Shown in pieces: positions 10,540-40,168 of a DNA stretch of 64,000 nucleotides (its first letter is position 1; every line of letters begins with the position of its first letter). Position numbers and translations under genes: made by a program. Source of the stretch: a virus. A model generated the notes under the pieces. That model had not been told where the DNA came from and did not search any database. It saw only the letters and a program-made list of their open reading frames with translations. The stretch lies in the IMG/VR virus record IMGVR_UViG_3300044796_000056, positions 1 to 64,000 of that record, one strand, 5' to 3'.

Positions 10540-11562
10540 TGGTTGAGGTAGCGGCACAAACCGCACCTGAACCTTCGATGGGGTCGTCAGAGAACCGCAC
10601 TAGAAGGTCGAACAGGATGTTCGATAGTCGAAACCGGGAGTCACCAACAAGGTGACGTTGACGACGCAACTCATGGGCCCTCTCCCATGCCAGGCACGCG
10701 GTCACTCTACCACAGAACCGCTGGAACAAGATTTCTTTTGATACGGTCAGCGTCCTCTCAACATGGACTAGCGTTTGGTTGTAAAGCCATCGATGACTCC
10801 GGATTACGTAACCGGAACATATTCTTCAATACATATGGGTGGGCAACGACCACCGCCGAAAATGCCAGGCTAATGTTGTTGAACTGTCTTTAAGTGTCCG
10901 TCTAGATAACGGTAACACCAAGACTCCGGATCAGTAACCGGAAATTATCTTCTGGGTTGCCTCCGCCGCCAACTTCTCTGGTCCATCCGCCAAAGGGTGG
11001 CACTGCTTGACAAAATTATATCCGCAGTGAAAGTGAGGAAATATTCCGATGGCTAACGCTGTCGTGACCAACAGGCCGGAAACGGTAAGCGTTGGTCTAG
11101 CCGTAAAGGTAGAAGTAAGAGCCAAGTGGATTGCCACCTTGAGGCTCATGAGCACTGCTGAGTGAGGCAACGTTGAGTTGCACCAGCACTCTTTAAGTAG
11201 GGTAGAGTGACATACTTGCCTGGTCGGATGATACGTGAGTAGGGTTGCAAACCGGAAACGTATCAGCGTGTGAAAATCATCGCCGTGCGGGACACCGAAA
11301 TGTCCCAGTCATTCAAGGTTTACTGGACCGGCTGCAACTGGTCCAGTAGAAGTCAGGCACGGCAAAGACTAAGCTTGCAGGTTGATGTCGAAACCGAGTA
11401 TGGTCGTCTAGTGGATAGGACGCTCCCGTTAAGGGGGAAACGAGTGTTCGAATCACTCTCATGCGTTGTCCTGACTTAAATTATCGAAGTGGGTTCAACT
11501 CCTACGGGTGCCCGGTGGCTAGCGTACATCGGCGAAACGATGTGACAGCCGGAGAGACGGCA
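10540..11562 (+). ncRNA. large ornate structured RNA, GOLLD-like
   Basis: ~1 kb without credible ORF after promoter 10506-10531; long-range helix 10690-10711 with 11201-11223; E-loop/GNRA hairpins; directly precedes the tRNA array. Confidence 0.65.
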
Positions 11563-16518: not shown

Positions 16519-16591
16519 GACTTGCCAATTGTTAAGGCAGCATGCCCGGCTTTAAACCGGGAAGAGTTGGTTCGATTCCAACGACAAGTCA
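16519..16591 (+). tRNA. tRNA-like gene with TTA (ochre) anticodon
   Basis: CCCGG-CTTTAAA-CCGGG, perfect T arm, GACTTG/CAAGTC; no encoded CCA. Confidence 0.6.
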
Positions 16592-17540: not shown

Positions 17541-17614
17541 GACTGTATAGCTCAATGGTAGAGCAACGCCACGACACGGCGAAGACCAAGGCTCGATTCC
17601 TTGTACGGTCACCA
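17541..17614 (+). tRNA. tRNA-Val(GAC)
   Basis: Loop ACGACAC (non-U33), ACCA. Confidence 0.85.
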
Positions 17615-29911: not shown

Positions 29912-30799
29912 ATGGATGAATTGCGTGAGTTCGTTGAGAACAACCCTAAGCTGGTGACTCGTCGTGAGTCTGTCCGGTATCCGGGTCTATACGTCATCAA
30001 ATACACCCGAAAGGTGTTCTACGATGCTCTCTGGAATGACGTTCTAGAAGAGTGTCGAGGTCTTGTTGTCGATGCGGAATGGAACCGCGTCGTCAATCCC
30101 TTCCGAAAGATCTACAATCGCGGCGAGCGGGGAACGGATTTCCCGCTTGACGAGCCGGTGGTAGCCGTCCAGAAAGTCAATGGCTTCATGGCGGGAGCAA
30201 CTTACATTGAAGGATATGGAGTCGTGGTGTCAACTACCGGCTCCCTGGACTCACCATTTGTGGAGATCGCGGAACGTCATCTGCGGTCCAAGATTTGTAA
30301 TTGGATAGACAAGGTTGGTCACAAGATCACTTGGCTATTCGAGATTTGTGATCCCTCTGACCCGCACATCATCCAGGAGACTCCTGGCGCCTATCTAATA
30401 GGCGCGCGTTACGTGACCGGTGATATGATGTCAGAGGGAGCGCTAGATTCTATGGCTCCTGGTATGGGTGCAATGCGGCCTAACCATCTGCGTATACCGT
30501 TCGAGTCCGTCCTGTTGGCTATGACCAACTGCCGACTCGAAGGCTTTGTGGTTCACTCCCATCGCCTGCAGAAGTCACTGAAGATCAAGTCACCATACTA
30601 TTTGGTGACCAAGTTCCTTGCTCGTATGCGGGCGGAACGTTTCCTGGAGCGGATCAATGATCCAAAGCTGCGGGAGACCGTCGATGAGGAGTTCTACCCT
30701 CTGTTGGACCATTTATGGGCCAACCAGATATCATTCAACCTACTAAACGATGAGCAGGCCAAGATTGCCGTCATCCGTAAATTCTTGGAGACTATGTAA
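29912..30799 (+). CDS. RNA ligase 1-like protein
   Basis: EECRGLV, PFRKIYN, KVNGF (motif I), FEI, EGFVV, KIKS. Confidence 0.85.
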   Translation: MDELREFVENNPKLVTRRESVRYPGLYVIKYTRKVFYDALWNDVLEECRGLVVDAEWNRVVNPFRKIYNRGERGTDFPLDEPVVAVQKVNGFMAGATYIEGYGVVVSTTGSLDSPFVEIAERHLRSKICNWIDKVGHKITWLFEICDPSDPHIIQETPGAYLIGARYVTGDMMSEGALDSMAPGMGAMRPNHLRIPFESVLLAMTNCRLEGFVVHSHRLQKSLKIKSPYYLVTKFLARMRAERFLERINDPKLRETVDEEFYPLLDHLWANQISFNLLNDEQAKIAVIRKFLETM

Positions 30800-30953: not shown

Positions 30954-31574
30954 ATGGATAAGTCTTTGATGCCTGTTGGTTTGGGTATGATTCCTGCCGT
31001 CATCGAATCCGGTGCGCGCGGTGAACGAACTTATGACATCTATTCACGCTTGATGCGTGAACGGGTCGTCTTTCTGGTTGGACCTATCGACGACTGGTGC
31101 GCCAACGTGCTGGTCGCCCAGCTGCTGTATTTGGAGCATGAGAGTCCTGAGCAGACCATCAGTCTCTACATCAATTCTCCAGGCGGCTCAGTAACATCAG
31201 GTCTGGCAATCTATGACACGATGAAGTTCATCCGCGCACCCATCAGCACGATCTGTATCGGTGAGGCGGCAAGCATGGGAGCATTCATCCTGGCGTCAGG
31301 TACTAAGGGCAAGCGCTTCATTCTACCCAACGCCGAGGTTATGATTCACCAGCTGTCCGCCGGTTTCGCCGGTCAGGGAACCGACATCGCTATCCACGCG
31401 GCTATGATTGCTCGCACCAAAGCGAAGCTGAACCGCATCATGGCGACCGAAACTGGTCACACTGCAGAAGAGGTAGAGAAGGCTTCTGAGCGTGATAATT
31501 TCTTGACCGCTGAAGAGGCTTTGGGTTTTGGTATCGTTGACCGAATCGTGACGAGAGCTCCTTCTGAAGACTAA
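30954..31574 (+). CDS. clpP: ClpP protease subunit
   Basis: YDIYSRL, YINSPGGSV, AASMG, MIHQ, RDNF. Confidence 0.96.
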   Translation: MDKSLMPVGLGMIPAVIESGARGERTYDIYSRLMRERVVFLVGPIDDWCANVLVAQLLYLEHESPEQTISLYINSPGGSVTSGLAIYDTMKFIRAPISTICIGEAASMGAFILASGTKGKRFILPNAEVMIHQLSAGFAGQGTDIAIHAAMIARTKAKLNRIMATETGHTAEEVEKASERDNFLTAEEALGFGIVDRIVTRAPSED

Positions 31575-36116: not shown

Positions 36117-36319
36117 ACCATTATCATGATCAGTTTCCTTTCAGGATTCAACTGAACCGGGATTACTATCCAAAGATATCGGAGATCTACCAGCAACTTC
36201 GTACGTTCGGTGAAATAGGCGGCGAGTGGACGGCATATGATATGTTCGGGTATCAGCATATCTACTTCAAGAAGGAAGAAGATTTGAAGAACTTCCAGGA
36301 ATGGGTCAAGACGCTGTGA
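36113..36319 (+). CDS. hypothetical protein
   Basis: ATGA coupling. Confidence 0.55.
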   Translation: MNHYHDQFPFRIQLNRDYYPKISEIYQQLRTFGEIGGEWTAYDMFGYQHIYFKKEEDLKNFQEWVKTL

Positions 36320-36741
36320 AAGAGAAGAATTGGCAGGCTTGGAAGTATCTCATGGTCAAAGACAATGAGCACGGCCAATCTGGTTTGTATGCGATGATTG
36401 ATATTCCATACAAGACAGTCATAGGCGCATTTGGTGGCAAGATAGAATGCGTCAGTCCTATACCTGAAAGGATCACCAACTCTATCATTCAGATTGCGAT
36501 CAACCGAGAGCAGGACATACTTTTGATCCTGACCGGAGAGAAAGATTTTCGGTGGGAGGGTATCAGCTATATGAACCACTCCTGTGAACCTAACGCCAAC
36601 ATGGTTGCTCAAACTATAATCGTTGCCAATCGAGACATCAAACGTGGCGAAGAGATTACGGTAGACTACAACAGTTGGAACTTCATTGGTGAGGGTGTGC
36701 CTTGCTGGTGCCCAAAGTGTGATGGTAAGGTGACCATATGA
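36301..36741 (+). CDS. SET-domain protein-lysine methyltransferase
   Basis: G.GLYA, NHSCEPN, RDI..GEEITVDY, post-SET CWC..C. Confidence 0.9.
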   Translation: MGQDAVKEKNWQAWKYLMVKDNEHGQSGLYAMIDIPYKTVIGAFGGKIECVSPIPERITNSIIQIAINREQDILLILTGEKDFRWEGISYMNHSCEPNANMVAQTIIVANRDIKRGEEITVDYNSWNFIGEGVPCWCPKCDGKVTI

Positions 36742-37112
36742 ACAATCCCATGGGACCTATGGAGTTCGAGGAGTGCCCAAAGTGCACTGGCCGTTCCCAT
36801 GAAACATTGTGCGACAGCTGCAAACACAATAAGGAAACGATCAATTCTCTGTGGAAAATGATTCAGCAGCCCGAGGAAGCCTACCTTACTCCGCCACCCA
36901 TAAAAGGCGACGTGGCGCTTCCGAACGGCTGCCATCTTTTCTGGCATATGACCGAACAGGGACGTGAGTATTTCTCAGACGAGATAGGCGGTGGTGTCTA
37001 TGTCTGGCACACAGCGCTGGTAGATAGTGAAACACTGATAGCTGCAGTGAATCAAGAGAACATATTTCGCCGCCGAGAGTACGAGATAGAACAACGAAAA
37101 GCGAAAGGCTAA
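36738..37112 (+). CDS. hypothetical protein with CxxC pairs
   Basis: ATGA coupling. Confidence 0.55.
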   Translation: MNNPMGPMEFEECPKCTGRSHETLCDSCKHNKETINSLWKMIQQPEEAYLTPPPIKGDVALPNGCHLFWHMTEQGREYFSDEIGGGVYVWHTALVDSETLIAAVNQENIFRRREYEIEQRKAKG

Positions 37113-37121
37113 ATAGAACAT

Positions 37122-37197
37122 CGATGTGTAGCTCAAACTGGCTAGAGCAGGATCTCTAAAATCCAAGATCAGGGTTCGATGCCCTGCACAACGGCCA
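37122..37197 (+). tRNA. amber suppressor-type tRNA (CTA)
   Basis: GGAT-CTCTAAA-ATCC arm, canonical D and T arms, GCCA; follows CTAAATA. Confidence 0.85.
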
Positions 37198-37213: not shown

Positions 37214-37675
37214 ATGCTAGTATCACTTGTCAAAGATCTTCATGACACACGCACATCAGTCACCACGATTGATGAAGTTCATTTGCCAAATACGGCTGTG
37301 AACACTGGTCATACCACTCCACAGGGCTGGGCTATTTGGAGCATCGTTCCCGAGCACATCGAGCAATGGGGTAAGAAGGTTGCCGCTGAAGTCAAGGCAA
37401 AGGTAGAGGTCAAGGCCAACACCGTCGTCACTGAAGTCAAGACTGAAGTGAAGAAAGTCGAAGCAGAGGTTAAGGTTGCTCCAGTAAAGACTGAAGTTGC
37501 CAATGTTGCTGCTAAGGTCGAAACGGTAGCCAACACGGTTGCCACAGAAGTCAAGACTGAAGTGAAGAAGGTTGTTGCTGAAGTCAAGGCCGAAGCCAAC
37601 ACCGTCGTAACAGAAGTCAAAGCCGAGGCAGCTAAGGTTGTCACCGCAGTTGAGAACTTGGTCAAGAAGATCTAA
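37214..37675 (+). CDS. Val/Lys/Glu/Ala repeat protein
   Basis: ANTV(V/A)TEVK(T/A)E repeated three times. Confidence 0.7.
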   Translation: MLVSLVKDLHDTRTSVTTIDEVHLPNTAVNTGHTTPQGWAIWSIVPEHIEQWGKKVAAEVKAKVEVKANTVVTEVKTEVKKVEAEVKVAPVKTEVANVAAKVETVANTVATEVKTEVKKVVAEVKAEANTVVTEVKAEAAKVVTAVENLVKKI

Positions 37676-37794: not shown

Positions 37795-38346
37795 ATGCCA
37801 GCATATTCTTATCTCTTGCACCATAAACCTACAAACACATTTTACTACGGTGTTCGCTGGGCTAAAGATTGTCACCCAGATGAATTTTGGAGAACATATT
37901 TTACATCAAGTAAAAAGAACGTTCCATTACTTCGCACACTATTTGGTGATGATAGTTTCGAGTTTGAGATCCGGAGGGTATTCAAGTCTGGTAAGAAAGC
38001 GGCAGACTGGGAACACAAAGTATTGCGTAGAATGCGCGTATTGGATAAACCCGATCTTTGGTTGAATAGGACAACAAACACATCTTGGTTATATGATATA
38101 AATCCATTCAAAGGGAAACACCACTCAAACGAAACCAGGCAGCGTATAGCCACCACTCTTGTTCAGAAAAGCATAAGACCGCCCAATACAAGGGGTATGA
38201 CTCCTTGGAATAAGGGCATCCCACATTCAGAAGAACAAAAGAAGAAAATGAGTGGAAAGAAGTGGATCAACAACGGTACTCTTGAGCGTAAAATACATAA
38301 TGAAGAAAAGATACCGACCGGTTGGAAAAAAGGCAGAATGTTGTAG
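37795..38346 (+). CDS. GIY-YIG (Seg-like) homing endonuclease
   Basis: YSY...FYYGVR, YFTSS, TPWNKG, WINNG, GW.KGR; AT-rich. Confidence 0.85.
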   Translation: MPAYSYLLHHKPTNTFYYGVRWAKDCHPDEFWRTYFTSSKKNVPLLRTLFGDDSFEFEIRRVFKSGKKAADWEHKVLRRMRVLDKPDLWLNRTTNTSWLYDINPFKGKHHSNETRQRIATTLVQKSIRPPNTRGMTPWNKGIPHSEEQKKKMSGKKWINNGTLERKIHNEEKIPTGWKKGRML

Positions 38347-38421
38347 AATTACATCAGAGGACCTCCCTCGTTGTAATTGACTCTTACGAAAGATTCAGTT
38401 ATAATAGATGGAGACTCAAAA

Positions 38422-39126
38422 ATGATGAATTTCAAAGCAGCATTCAAAGCGTGTGCCGACGCCAAGGATATTTCCAGCGTTGACATCGTACAATACGCTA
38501 TCCTTCGCGCCATGAAAGCGAAGACGGCTCAGACTATTGAGGACCGTATCAAGATAGCATCAACCTTTATCCGCCGGCACTTTCGTTCTGTGAAGAATAG
38601 AAAGATGCTCGATAATGGGGTTGATCCAGAAAGAGCGGTTAGGAGAGCGACCGAAATTACTAAGAGTGCTAAGGTCATCTGTGGCATTCTAGAAAAGAGT
38701 ATGTTTACTGATGAACGTGAGCGCATCCTCTACAAAAACATCGCGGTGGCTTTATATGAGCAGTACAAGATCCCTGCGGATCTTTACACCAGACATTACG
38801 TCTACATCTTCGTGCGTCAAGATATGACGCCGGAGTATCAGCTAGTCCAGGCTAGCCATGCGGCGGCTCGCATGGGACAACGTCTAGGATCCAATGGCAT
38901 TGACCAGGGCAAGTTTGATGAGTTGTATTTCAGTGTGATTGGTGTCCCTGATCTTCATGGTCTTGCCAAAGCATTGGAAGACTTCAAGCAGCGCGGTATC
39001 AAGACCTATCCGTTCATTGAGCCAGACATCGGAAACGTGATGACAGCATTCGCTTCCGACCCGGTTTGGTCACATGATCGTAAGGGATTGCTATCTTACA
39101 AGAGATTGGTCTTCAAGAAGGACTAA
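38422..39126 (+). CDS. protein with C-terminal peptidyl-tRNA hydrolase 2-like domain
   Basis: YIFVRQDM....LVQASHAA...FIEPDIGN..TAFA. Confidence 0.7.
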   Translation: MMNFKAAFKACADAKDISSVDIVQYAILRAMKAKTAQTIEDRIKIASTFIRRHFRSVKNRKMLDNGVDPERAVRRATEITKSAKVICGILEKSMFTDERERILYKNIAVALYEQYKIPADLYTRHYVYIFVRQDMTPEYQLVQASHAAARMGQRLGSNGIDQGKFDELYFSVIGVPDLHGLAKALEDFKQRGIKTYPFIEPDIGNVMTAFASDPVWSHDRKGLLSYKRLVFKKD

Positions 39127-39129
39127 ATA

Positions 39130-39415
39130 GGTTTGAATGATTGTAAACGCCTGACTAAAGGCATGTTGGACTGGGGTTCGATTCCCCACGGTTCCACCAA
39201 ATTTCAGGACCATGCTAGAGGGTCCATTATGGGGCCGATCGGTTTCGACAGCGTGAGTAATACACCAAGTGCAATCCGGTATGCTACGACCGTAACAGTG
39301 CAAAACCATAAATGCATCTAACGATGACATCTATGACACCGTAGAGTTGGCTCTAGCAGCCTAACCCTCGGGTCTGAGTTTCGGCCGCTTCCTTGTAAAC
39401 AGAATAAGCGGCCAC
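39130..39415 (+). ncRNA. ssrA: two-piece (circularly permuted) tmRNA
   Basis: T arm plus CGGTTCCACCA ends at 39199 before GGGGCCGA..GGTTTCGAC at 39231; tag ORF 39314-39364 ASNDDIYDTVELALAA*. Confidence 0.9.
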
Positions 39416-39502
39416 TCTTTAACTTAATCAGGCCAGTTTTACTCTTACAGTTTCCAGGCGTATAATAGATAATGTGAACTCCCTTAAACAAGGAAATACA
39501 TT

Positions 39503-40168
39503 ATGAAAACCGCGCAGTGGTTATACCGGCTGTCGATGGTTATTATGGTTGGAGTGTTGATCTACGCATTGTATCAGACTTATTTGACTGTGAAGTGGTG
39601 GCACAATTTCCACCAGCAACATCAACAGATGGAACAAACCATCACTGATCAATCGGGTAAGATCACAGAACTGGAACGGAAAGAAAAGTTCTACGAAGAT
39701 ATAGTCGTGACTCAACAGAATGAGATCGCGGCGAAAGCAGCCGCCAAGAAAGCCAAGGCCGACTTTGTGGCTTCTGAATTGAGATGTCTTGCGGATAATA
39801 CGTATGCAGAGGCCGGGTTTGAACCGGCTGATGGCCAGTTGGCTGTAGCAACGGTGGTGATGAACCGGGTGGTTGATCCTCAGTATCCAAAGACAGTTTG
39901 TGGTGTTGTTTACGAGCGGCACTTGAATAAAATGAACAACAAGATCGTTTGTCAGTTCAGTTGGACGTGTAAGCCTCGCCATCGTATGGCCACGGCAGTT
40001 TACAAGTCCATTATGGAGATGGTGAAGGGTGTTTATTTCAAACATGTACGCAGTGACGAAGTTGCCGACGCAACCCTCTACCACGCCGACTATATCCAGA
40101 CTCCTAACTGGGCAACCGATGAAACCAAGCTGGCTCAGATCGGTCATCACATTTTCTATTCCCACTGA
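39503..40168 (+). CDS. SleB/Hydrolase_2 cell-wall hydrolase, membrane anchored
   Basis: CLA.N.Y.EA, AVA.VVMNRV, CQFSW, IGHHIFY. Confidence 0.9.
   Translation: MKTAQWLYRLSMVIMVGVLIYALYQTYLTVKWWHNFHQQHQQMEQTITDQSGKITELERKEKFYEDIVVTQQNEIAAKAAAKKAKADFVASELRCLADNTYAEAGFEPADGQLAVATVVMNRVVDPQYPKTVCGVVYERHLNKMNNKIVCQFSWTCKPRHRMATAVYKSIMEMVKGVYFKHVRSDEVADATLYHADYIQTPNWATDETKLAQIGHHIFYSH

Follow-up and report, generated by a model that had tools for sequence, protein, structure and literature searches.

Why should a virus encode a transfer-messenger RNA (tmRNA) of its own, and why should this RNA stand beside a gene that resembles a peptidyl-tRNA hydrolase? The question is raised by a locus in the window analyzed here, a stretch of 64,000 nucleotides (nt) that comprises the first 64 kb of the 76,220-bp IMG/VR virus contig IMGVR_UViG_3300044796_000056 (CheckV completeness 44%). 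On the plus strand of this window, an open reading frame (ORF) of 234 residues with a Pth2-like domain (P0001; 38422-39126) adjoins the gene of a tmRNA in two permuted pieces (39139-39413), and an amber-suppressor tRNA with the anticodon CUA is encoded upstream (37122-37197). A preliminary description had read the stretch from 38422 to 39415, together with the clpP gene at 30954, as a phage ribosome-rescue module. According to our analysis, the locus probably contains a functional two-piece tmRNA (ssrA) that shares a conserved block with the amber-suppressor tRNA and with a divergent protein of two domains and the Pth2 fold. In the following, the Pth2-like gene and the tmRNA are referred to as the pair; the trio also includes the suppressor tRNA(CUA).

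That the RNA is a permuted tmRNA, with the 3' acceptor piece placed before the 5' piece, had been proposed from the sequence, with the permuted models of ARAGORN and Rfam as the suggested check; both call a two-piece tmRNA. ARAGORN predicts a permuted tmRNA (tmRNA*) at 39107-39455 with the tag ASNDDIYDTVELALAA. The Rfam model RF04321 (tmRNA_permuted) aligns to 39139-39364 over its full length (model positions 1-213 of 213) with 129.2 bits against a cut-off of 47, and the model RF01850 (beta_tmRNA) scores 92.4 bits against a cut-off of 84. The limits of the whole element, 39139-39413, follow from these calls combined with sequence features and covariation. The acceptor piece (39139-39199, plus strand), as delimited by the Rfam alignment, sequence and covariation, consists of the 5' strands of P2 (a five-pair and a six-pair helix), a 5-bp T-arm with the loop region GGUUCGAUUCC and, in its 3' part, the 3' acceptor strand CGGUUCC, the discriminator A and an encoded CCA at 39197-99. 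The coding piece (39231-39413, plus strand), recognized by ARAGORN, Rfam, sequence and covariation, starts with the 5' acceptor strand GGGGCCG (39231-37), followed by the universal GGUUUCGAC motif, the return (3') strands of P2 and a small 4-bp hairpin at 39277-92. Its tag frame (39314-39361) opens with the resume codon GCA (Ala) at 39314, runs for 16 residues, ends in LAA and is closed by the stop codon TAA at 39362-64. The terminus of the piece is formed by a covarying 8-bp hairpin (39383-90/39406-13), after which comes ACUCUUU. The acceptor stem forms between the two pieces, where 39189-95 pairs with 39231-37; the minimum free energy (MFE) fold of the single sequence recovers this stem as well as the outer P2 and the hairpins of the spacer and the terminus (z = -1.9). 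A blastn search of the tmRNA alone against cultured phages yields a match confined to the T-arm.

Between the two pieces lies a spacer of 31 nt (39200-39230, plus strand; defined by sequence and MFE fold), which is presumably excised from the precursor. The GGACC/GGTCC hairpin to which the preliminary description had drawn attention is present in the spacer (GGACC at 39207-11, GGUCC at 39221-25), but a 5-bp stem within 31 nt is unremarkable on its own, and the spacer sequence is not conserved in the relatives. Because the size of the spacer varies among them from 3 to 89 nt, with only 3-5 nt left in two, we regard it as a disposable linker and the hairpin as specific to this genome. The contig of a lake-water relative departs from the window exactly after the CCA at 39199.

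The relatives were collected by a scan of IMG/VR with an alignment of the Pth2-like family, which provided 59 loci (L-numbered below), and their tmRNAs were called by ARAGORN, Rfam (90-134 bits) and nhmmer. Since ARAGORN missed the tmRNA in six relatives where Rfam and nhmmer detected it, counts based on ARAGORN only under-report these genes. The tmRNA of the window and ten homologues adjoining relatives of the Pth2-like ORF account for the 11 sequences of the covariation analysis. Standard pairs fill 89.4% of the cells in this alignment, compared with 39-45% when the partner columns are slid by 1-3 positions; compensatory, i.e. two-sided, changes occur at 21 out of 37 pairs, and the observed values are attained in 0 of 500 shuffles. 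The third acceptor pair, G3:U70, is G:U in all 11 sequences, and the acceptor positions 4-6 covary. The LAA ending of the tag, on which the preliminary description had relied, recurs in every one of the 11 sequences and the longer ALAA ending in ten, while the first part of the tag is variable. These results support the view that the tmRNA is under purifying selection and has all the sequence features by which a working two-piece tmRNA is recognized. As far as can be judged from sequence, its features are the marks of an alanine-accepting, tag-encoding RNA that works. A gene fragment or a decoy was considered as well and was rejected in view of the covariation, the invariant G3:U70 pair and the LAA tag ends.

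When is this RNA expected to be made? A late-type promoter had been suggested upstream of the tmRNA. The motif concerned, CTAAATA at 39123-39129 (plus strand), overlaps the stop codon of the Pth2-like ORF and lies 9 nt before the first tmRNA helix; we take it to resemble a late promoter of the T4 type. CTAAATA occurs 13 times on the plus strand of the window (about 4.8 expected) and three times on the minus strand, in many cases only a few bases ahead of a structural gene (43903, 54932, 60141), and the single exact TATAAATA in the window precedes the tail-tube-cap gene. In L002, L004, L005 and L006, the motif or a one-base variant precedes the tmRNA at an identical offset, and tRNA(CUA) is likewise preceded by it, at 6-12 nt, both in the window and in L002-L005. 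The enrichment and the conserved offset thus support the suggested late-type promoter. The Pth2-like ORF is preceded by a sigma70-like promoter, TTGACT-17-TATAAT (38377-38405, plus strand), which agrees with the consensus at 11 out of 12 positions and was absent from the preliminary description. It belongs to a recurring class, TTKACT-N16/17-TATAAT, located directly before gene starts (7677, 9969, 10504, 21849, 31619, 38377, 39438) and probably representing the early promoters of the phage. Because a sigma70-like promoter and a CTAAATA motif are both present, the tmRNA could be made early, by read-through, as well as late.

What is more demanding is the assignment of the protein encoded next to the tmRNA. 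The ORF has two domains, a helical N-domain (residues 1-119) and a C-domain of the Pth2 fold (residues about 124-229, nt about 38791-39108). As a single sequence it finds no match in Pfam, NCBIfam or the PDB. The family to which it belongs comprises 387 clusters at 50% identity and is not represented by a Pfam model; 26 out of 149 family members match the PTH2 model PF01981 weakly (best E 4.4e-5). A profile of 149 family representatives reaches the PDB entry 24bt_A, a solved peptidyl-tRNA hydrolase, with E 8.9e-5, and the alignment places R132, D134, Q143, H146, D202, T208 and P214 on conserved Pth2 positions, with D202 on the conserved Asp and H146 on the conserved His. The structural evidence agrees with this placement. 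An AlphaFold (AF2) model built from 24 homologues has a predicted local distance difference test score (pLDDT) of 88; in Foldseek, the top 12 matches of the C-domain are all Pth2 (probability 1.00; template-modelling score on the target 0.69-0.74), and VIA-align superimposes 105-108 residues on six Pth2 structures (1q7s, 3erj, 1rlk, 2zv3, 1wn2 and 1xty) with Z 13.2-14.0 and a root-mean-square deviation of 2.3-2.6 A, scores far above those of the next unrelated rows. Among the viral structures of BFVD, phage proteins named peptidyl-tRNA hydrolase are matched (RaK2, Myrna, VH7D, Atu_ph07). Within the family, the C-domain motifs RxYVYIFVRQD, YQxVQxxH and FxEPD are invariant across sequences that are 33-80% identical, which argues for a conserved active or binding site. 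We conclude that the C-domain is a remote homologue of Pth2 with a variant active site, and that peptidyl-tRNA hydrolase activity of the protein is plausible.

For the N-domain, no convincing structural relative (best Z 6.7, at noise level; up to 5.3 in the VIA-align comparison described above), no family match and no language-model neighbours were found; it holds a conserved, poorly modelled LDNG loop. A tblastn search of cultured phages detects no full-length homologue with both domains, the best match covering 61% and only the C-terminal domain. The 5' untranslated region of the Pth2-like gene measures only about 16 nt. We also considered whether this gene might be gated by a stop codon; this was rejected, as the in-frame TAG of the upstream gene is trailed by a TAA 10 codons on.

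The adjacency of the Pth2-like gene and the tmRNA that had been described is conserved in related phages. Of the 13 nearest loci, 12 (L002-L012, L014) have a permuted tmRNA 3' of the Pth2-like gene, on the same strand and about 20-600 nt away. Upstream of the Pth2-like gene, tRNA(CUA) is present within 0.15-2.6 kb in L002-L009, L012 and L016, and L014 has, at the equivalent position, an ARAGORN tRNA call without an assigned anticodon. No partner is co-located with the pair more consistently than the amber-suppressor tRNA, which the preliminary description had not connected with it. Unrelated jumbo-phage backbones (L039-L043, L050, L060) likewise have a tmRNA no more than about 5 kb from the Pth2-like gene, with a weaker tmRNA match near the gene in the jumbo-phage locus L057. 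More distant members of the family reside inside tRNA gene arrays that include no tmRNA; hence a general tRNA-directed enzyme is favored over a tmRNA-specific factor.

The conservation extends to the flanks. An ORF of 124 residues without a family match (36738-37112, plus strand), just upstream of the suppressor tRNA, has homologues at the same position in L002-L005 and L012, and the downstream neighbor, a cell-wall hydrolase of the Hydrolase_2 type (39503-40168, plus strand) with its own promoter TTTACT-17-TATAAT at 39438-66, is syntenic in L002-L005, L012 and L014. Because these flanking ORFs are syntenic too, part of the conservation of the arrangement represents inherited gene order. In the window, a gene resembling GIY-YIG/NUMOD3 homing endonucleases (37795-38346) is placed between tRNA(CUA) and the Pth2-like ORF and widens the gap between the two; since close relatives do not possess it, it looks like a recent mobile insertion. 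Other ORFs of the region include a SET-domain protein (PF00856, E 1.3e-12) at 36301-36741, two genes upstream of the suppressor tRNA, and an ORF of 153 residues at 37214-37675 that consists mostly of EVK/TEVK-type repeats and of which the first 53 residues alone are conserved, in L002 only.

The suppressor tRNA is called by ARAGORN on the plus strand, and the Rfam tRNA model scores it at 41.1 bits. It has an encoded CCA and G73, its CTAAATA motif occupies 37109-37115 just upstream, and the nearest phage tRNAs are only 67-71% identical. An amber suppressor could indicate that the phage reads TAG as sense; this was rejected. With the standard code, the contig and G001, a related contig of 166.7 kb that is 98% complete, are 88-91% coding, and reading TAG as sense adds 0.4-2.5%. 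No credible gene interrupted by TAG occurs in the contig or in G001. TAG, which closes 9 of 80 ORFs, is the rarest stop codon, and the baseplate and tail genes at 49.8-61.8 kb are all terminated by TAA. No signal of back-up stops was detected after the phage genes that end in TAG, and no target of the suppressor was found.

The phage itself is assigned to the T4-like myoviruses because the contig contains genes for a baseplate wedge protein, a hub-lysozyme, a tail-tube cap, a gp32-like single-stranded DNA-binding protein and a ribonucleotide reductase. The identity of the baseplate wedge protein to its counterparts in HTVC008M (Pelagibacter), Melnitz (Methylophilales), the Caulobacter phage Cr30 and cyanophages does not exceed 40%, with 38-40% for HTVC008M and Melnitz, and a blastn search of the locus against cultured phages gives no match. 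The DNA originates from a peat metagenome, and a second peat sample holds the same DNA at an identity of at least 99%. In addition to tRNA(CUA), ARAGORN predicts 37 tRNA genes at 11.4-21.5 kb; Rfam lists three further tRNA-like elements that are missing from the ARAGORN list (11397-11466, 16528-16582, 17541-17611), one of which covers only model positions 9-63. The window also includes a gene for an Rnl1-type RNA ligase (29912-30799). Inside this gene, at 29970-30002, 31 bases are swapped for 727 others in one 787-nt contig from a DNA run of the source sample; this marks a population variant with an insertion, which may be a mobile element or an intron.

The clpP gene at 30954, which had been counted among the components of the module, proves to encode a genuine ClpP proteolytic subunit of 206 residues (30954-31574, plus strand). 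It matches Pfam PF00574 (CLP_protease) with 249.6 bits and NCBIfam NF001368 with 296 bits (cut-off 249), the Ser, His and Asp motifs AASMG, MIHQ and ERD are present, and on the model of the ClpP-related head-maturation proteases it scores 86, below the cut-off of 120. Its membership in the module is weak: it is located 7.5 kb and about 20 genes upstream of the pair, among close relatives it is found in G001 only, and a ClpP within 10 kb of the pair occurs in one close relative only. Jumbo-phage loci (L029, L055-L057, L060) also carry ClpP. We therefore treat ClpP as only loosely linked to the pair. In G001 and in two further related phages (G002, G003), a GGQ protein of 132-145 residues with an RF-1 domain, similar to ArfB, is encoded inside the tRNA array (G001:C1:110868-111053); no counterpart of it was found on the present, 44%-complete contig. 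Judged by gene content, the phage lineage as a whole appears to invest in ribosome rescue.

The type of the tmRNA had also been taken as a clue to the host, and here the preliminary description went too far. The tmRNA of the window passes the beta model, those of its sister phages in L004 and L007 do likewise, and the sisters in L003, L005, L008 and L009 pass the alpha model; in the cultured Methylophilales phage Melnitz, the ssrA is of the alpha type and the host is outside the Alphaproteobacteria (PMC9004378). Because the two models alternate among sisters and the ssrA of Melnitz does not match the class of its host, the type of the tmRNA says little about the host. The best bacterial matches of ClpP are 56-63% identical, with Betaproteobacteria on top and Gammaproteobacteria and Firmicutes nearly equal, so that the similarity of ClpP favors Betaproteobacteria only mildly. 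A BLAST search of the tmRNA against five of the bacterial genomes with the best ClpP matches revealed nothing significant.

How might the components of the block work together? We propose that a precursor RNA would be transcribed from the late-type CTAAATA promoter, and additionally by read-through from the early sigma70-like promoter of the ORF, and would end at the 3' hairpin 39383-39413. The pairing of 39189-95 with 39231-37, which covariation shows, would build an acceptor stem like that of a tRNA, with the T-arm stacked against it; the RNase P of the host would cut before G39231, and trimming of the 3' end would halt at the CCA at 39199. The spacer would be lost in this way, leaving two RNAs joined by the acceptor and P2 helices. 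With the G3:U70 pair and A73 present, the RNA could be charged by the alanyl-tRNA synthetase (AlaRS) of the host and brought by host SmpB and EF-Tu to ribosomes stalled on broken or stop-less messages. Translation would resume at GCA 39314 and add ASNDDIYDTVELALAA, whose ALAA end would target the product for ClpXP; the phage may contribute the ClpP. The Pth2-like protein most likely hydrolyzes peptidyl-tRNAs or N-blocked aminoacyl-tRNAs that have fallen off ribosomes and so refills the tRNA pool. Together with the 37 tRNA genes, the block would keep translation running in an infected cell in which messages and tRNAs are damaged.

Several observations weigh against this interpretation. No match to SmpB (PF01668) was obtained either on the 76-kb contig (44% complete) or in G001 (98% complete), so that the function of the tmRNA hinges on compatibility with the host. 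Searches of the 76-kb contig likewise returned no AAA domain of the ClpX type, no RF-1 (release-factor) domain and no SspB. The description of trans-translation as self-supplied was thus overstated: because neither SmpB nor ClpX is encoded on the contig, the phage RNA must use the SmpB, AlaRS, EF-Tu, RNase P and ClpX of the host. The sole RNA-library run containing the locus (metatranscriptome X2) provides a 15-kb contig of flat depth, which cannot be distinguished from carried-over DNA and hence shows neither RNA ends nor transcription. With regard to the protein, the label of the adjacent gene as Pth2-like holds for fold and family profile and fails at PF01981, which is unmatched even at E 10, both with the whole protein and with the C-domain alone. 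In the alignment to 24bt_A, Tyr139 and Gln140 occupy the Lys-Lys positions of the Gly-Lys (G-K) motif, and the loop that follows the conserved Asp is shorter by six residues. Activity of the Sulfolobus Pth2 requires two residues, the D-A-G loop Asp and the lysine of the G-K motif. The sequence changes suggest that this may be a Pth2-like domain with a changed substrate or without catalysis. Finally, T4-like relatives are syntenic in general, and adjacency alone therefore does not prove functional coupling. In summary, the earlier interpretation is partly supported: it is right in outline and overstated on self-sufficiency, the membership of ClpP and the host clue.

If these objections are taken to their end, the linkage would be meaningless, and an altered or inactive ORF of the Pth2 fold would have been kept beside ssrA by inherited order and the clustering of RNA genes. 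The synteny of the flanking ORFs, the Tyr at the lysine position, the shortened active-site loop and the missing Pfam match would all fit this explanation, as does the two-domain homologue of phage XacN1, which has no tmRNA within 6 kb. It is hard to reconcile with C-domain motifs that stay invariant at identities of 33-80% and with the recurrence of a tmRNA within 5 kb in unrelated jumbo-phage backbones, and we consider it very unlikely. An explanation that shares the chemistry of our preferred reading and differs in purpose is that the block mainly neutralizes abortive-infection toxins by which the host attacks translation, namely nucleases that cut mRNAs or tRNAs and leave stop-less messages, and GNAT toxins that acetylate aminoacyl-tRNA: the tmRNA would free ribosomes on cut messages, and the Pth2-like enzyme would strip blocked (GNAT-acetylated) aminoacyl-tRNAs. 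Such a counter-defence kit would agree with the RNA ligase and the near-complete tRNA set of the phage, with the RNA-repair and ribosome-rescue context in which the PTH2 of jumbo phages has been placed (Iyer et al. 2021, PMC7824862) and with the description of Pth as the enzyme that detoxifies a tRNA-acetylating toxin (PMC9241777). No defence or anti-defence gene is specifically linked to the block, and the idea appears rather improbable to us.

The suppressor tRNA permits a more specific proposal, namely that termination is rewired. Expressed late, the suppressor would force read-through of UAG, mostly in host messages; ribosomes would run to the 3' ends of the mRNAs, the tmRNA would tag the extended products for ClpXP, and the Pth2-like protein (in relatives also the ArfB-like protein) would clear the by-products. 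The trio would then be one circuit for host shut-off or amino-acid recycling and not a means of general maintenance. The co-location of all three genes in the window, L002-L009 and L012, the CTAAATA motif before both the tmRNA and tRNA(CUA), and a genome that is not recoded, with TAG as its rarest stop and TAA at the end of its baseplate and tail genes, speak for this proposal. Read-through by suppressor tRNAs is moreover a documented source of substrates with which SsrA copes (Ueda 2002, as cited in PMC8012679); the same source refers to a physiological link between tmRNA and Pth (Singh and Varshney 2004) and to the toxicity of the lambda bar minigenes when Pth is limiting. Because of these published links among suppressor read-through, SsrA and Pth, a joint role in failed termination is plausible. 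Yet the suppressor has no target that we could find, the phage genes ending in TAG show no special back-up stops, and many members of the Pth2-like family lie among ordinary tRNAs with neither a tmRNA nor a suppressor nearby. We thus regard rewired termination as an unlikely explanation, and we would give only a small chance to the claim that the suppressor tRNA, the Pth2-like protein with its N-domain and the tmRNA form one late-expressed read-through-and-tag circuit in a standard-code phage. If the claim were true, orphan suppressor tRNAs of phages would gain a role other than recoding. A conserved block for the maintenance of translation, built around a functional two-piece tmRNA, is the interpretation that we prefer.

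Phage tmRNAs, PTH2 genes and orphan suppressor tRNAs have been reported separately and are largely unexplained; here a T4-like lineage of peat and freshwater that uses the standard code has all three in a fixed order. The literature that we searched contains no paper describing a suppressor tRNA, a Pth2-like gene and a permuted tmRNA as a fixed trio. Each part of the trio is of a known kind, as exemplified by the tmRNA of Melnitz and the PTH2 of jumbo phages; what deserves most attention is the conserved trio and the uncharacterized two-domain family. This leads to a testable proposal, i.e. that some phages carry a package by which they cope with, or exploit, failed translation termination. 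The family, with its helical N-domain, divergent Pth2 fold and Tyr-for-Lys replacement, is a clear target for biochemistry. Should the parts merely travel together, the locus would still be a well-documented example of the translation-maintenance genes of large phages.

A comparison with known systems places the components as follows. The C-terminal LAA degron and a phage ClpP whose catalytic triad is intact and whose N-terminus is host-like recall the ssrA/ClpXP system of Escherichia coli; unlike the E. coli tag, the 16-residue tag of the window has no SspB-binding sequence, and neither ClpX nor SspB was found on the contig. With the PTH2 of archaea and eukaryotes, the C-domain shares the alpha/beta fold and alignable R-x-D, Q-x-x-H-A and Asp motifs, and with the PTH2 of large phages the family shares its location among tRNA genes. 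PTH2 genes have been noted in jumbo phages by Iyer et al. (2021, PMC7824862), a paper that makes no mention of tmRNA. The ORF of the window differs from known PTH2 in its extra helical N-domain of 120 residues, the Tyr in place of the lysine of the G-K motif, the shortened loop after the Asp, a similarity below the Pfam threshold and its fixed position beside a tmRNA in this phage clade.

Two-piece tmRNAs of bacteria are described from Alphaproteobacteria, some Betaproteobacteria and cyanobacteria (Keiler 2000; Sharkady and Williams 2004, both as cited in PMC9004378). Common to these and to the RNA of the window are the gene order, the acceptor stem formed in trans, G3:U70, the encoded CCA, the Ala resume codon and a tag ending in ...ALAA. 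Unlike them, the latter is phage-borne, has no smpB nearby and a spacer of only 31 nt, and of its post-tag region only a small stem and one covarying terminal hairpin are left. Among phages, 53 out of 402 tmRNA-bearing genomes have a two-piece tmRNA (PMC9004378), including the T4-like Methylophilales phage Melnitz and pelagimyophages (Buchholz et al. 2022, PMC9004378). Melnitz resembles the phage of the window in that it, too, is a lytic T4-like myovirus with a permuted ssrA. In Melnitz, however, ssrA is located behind an early promoter and a glutamine riboswitch and beside a transcription co-activator (PMC9004378), whereas in the window ssrA comes after a Pth2-like gene, is preceded by a late-type motif and has an amber-suppressor tRNA farther upstream.

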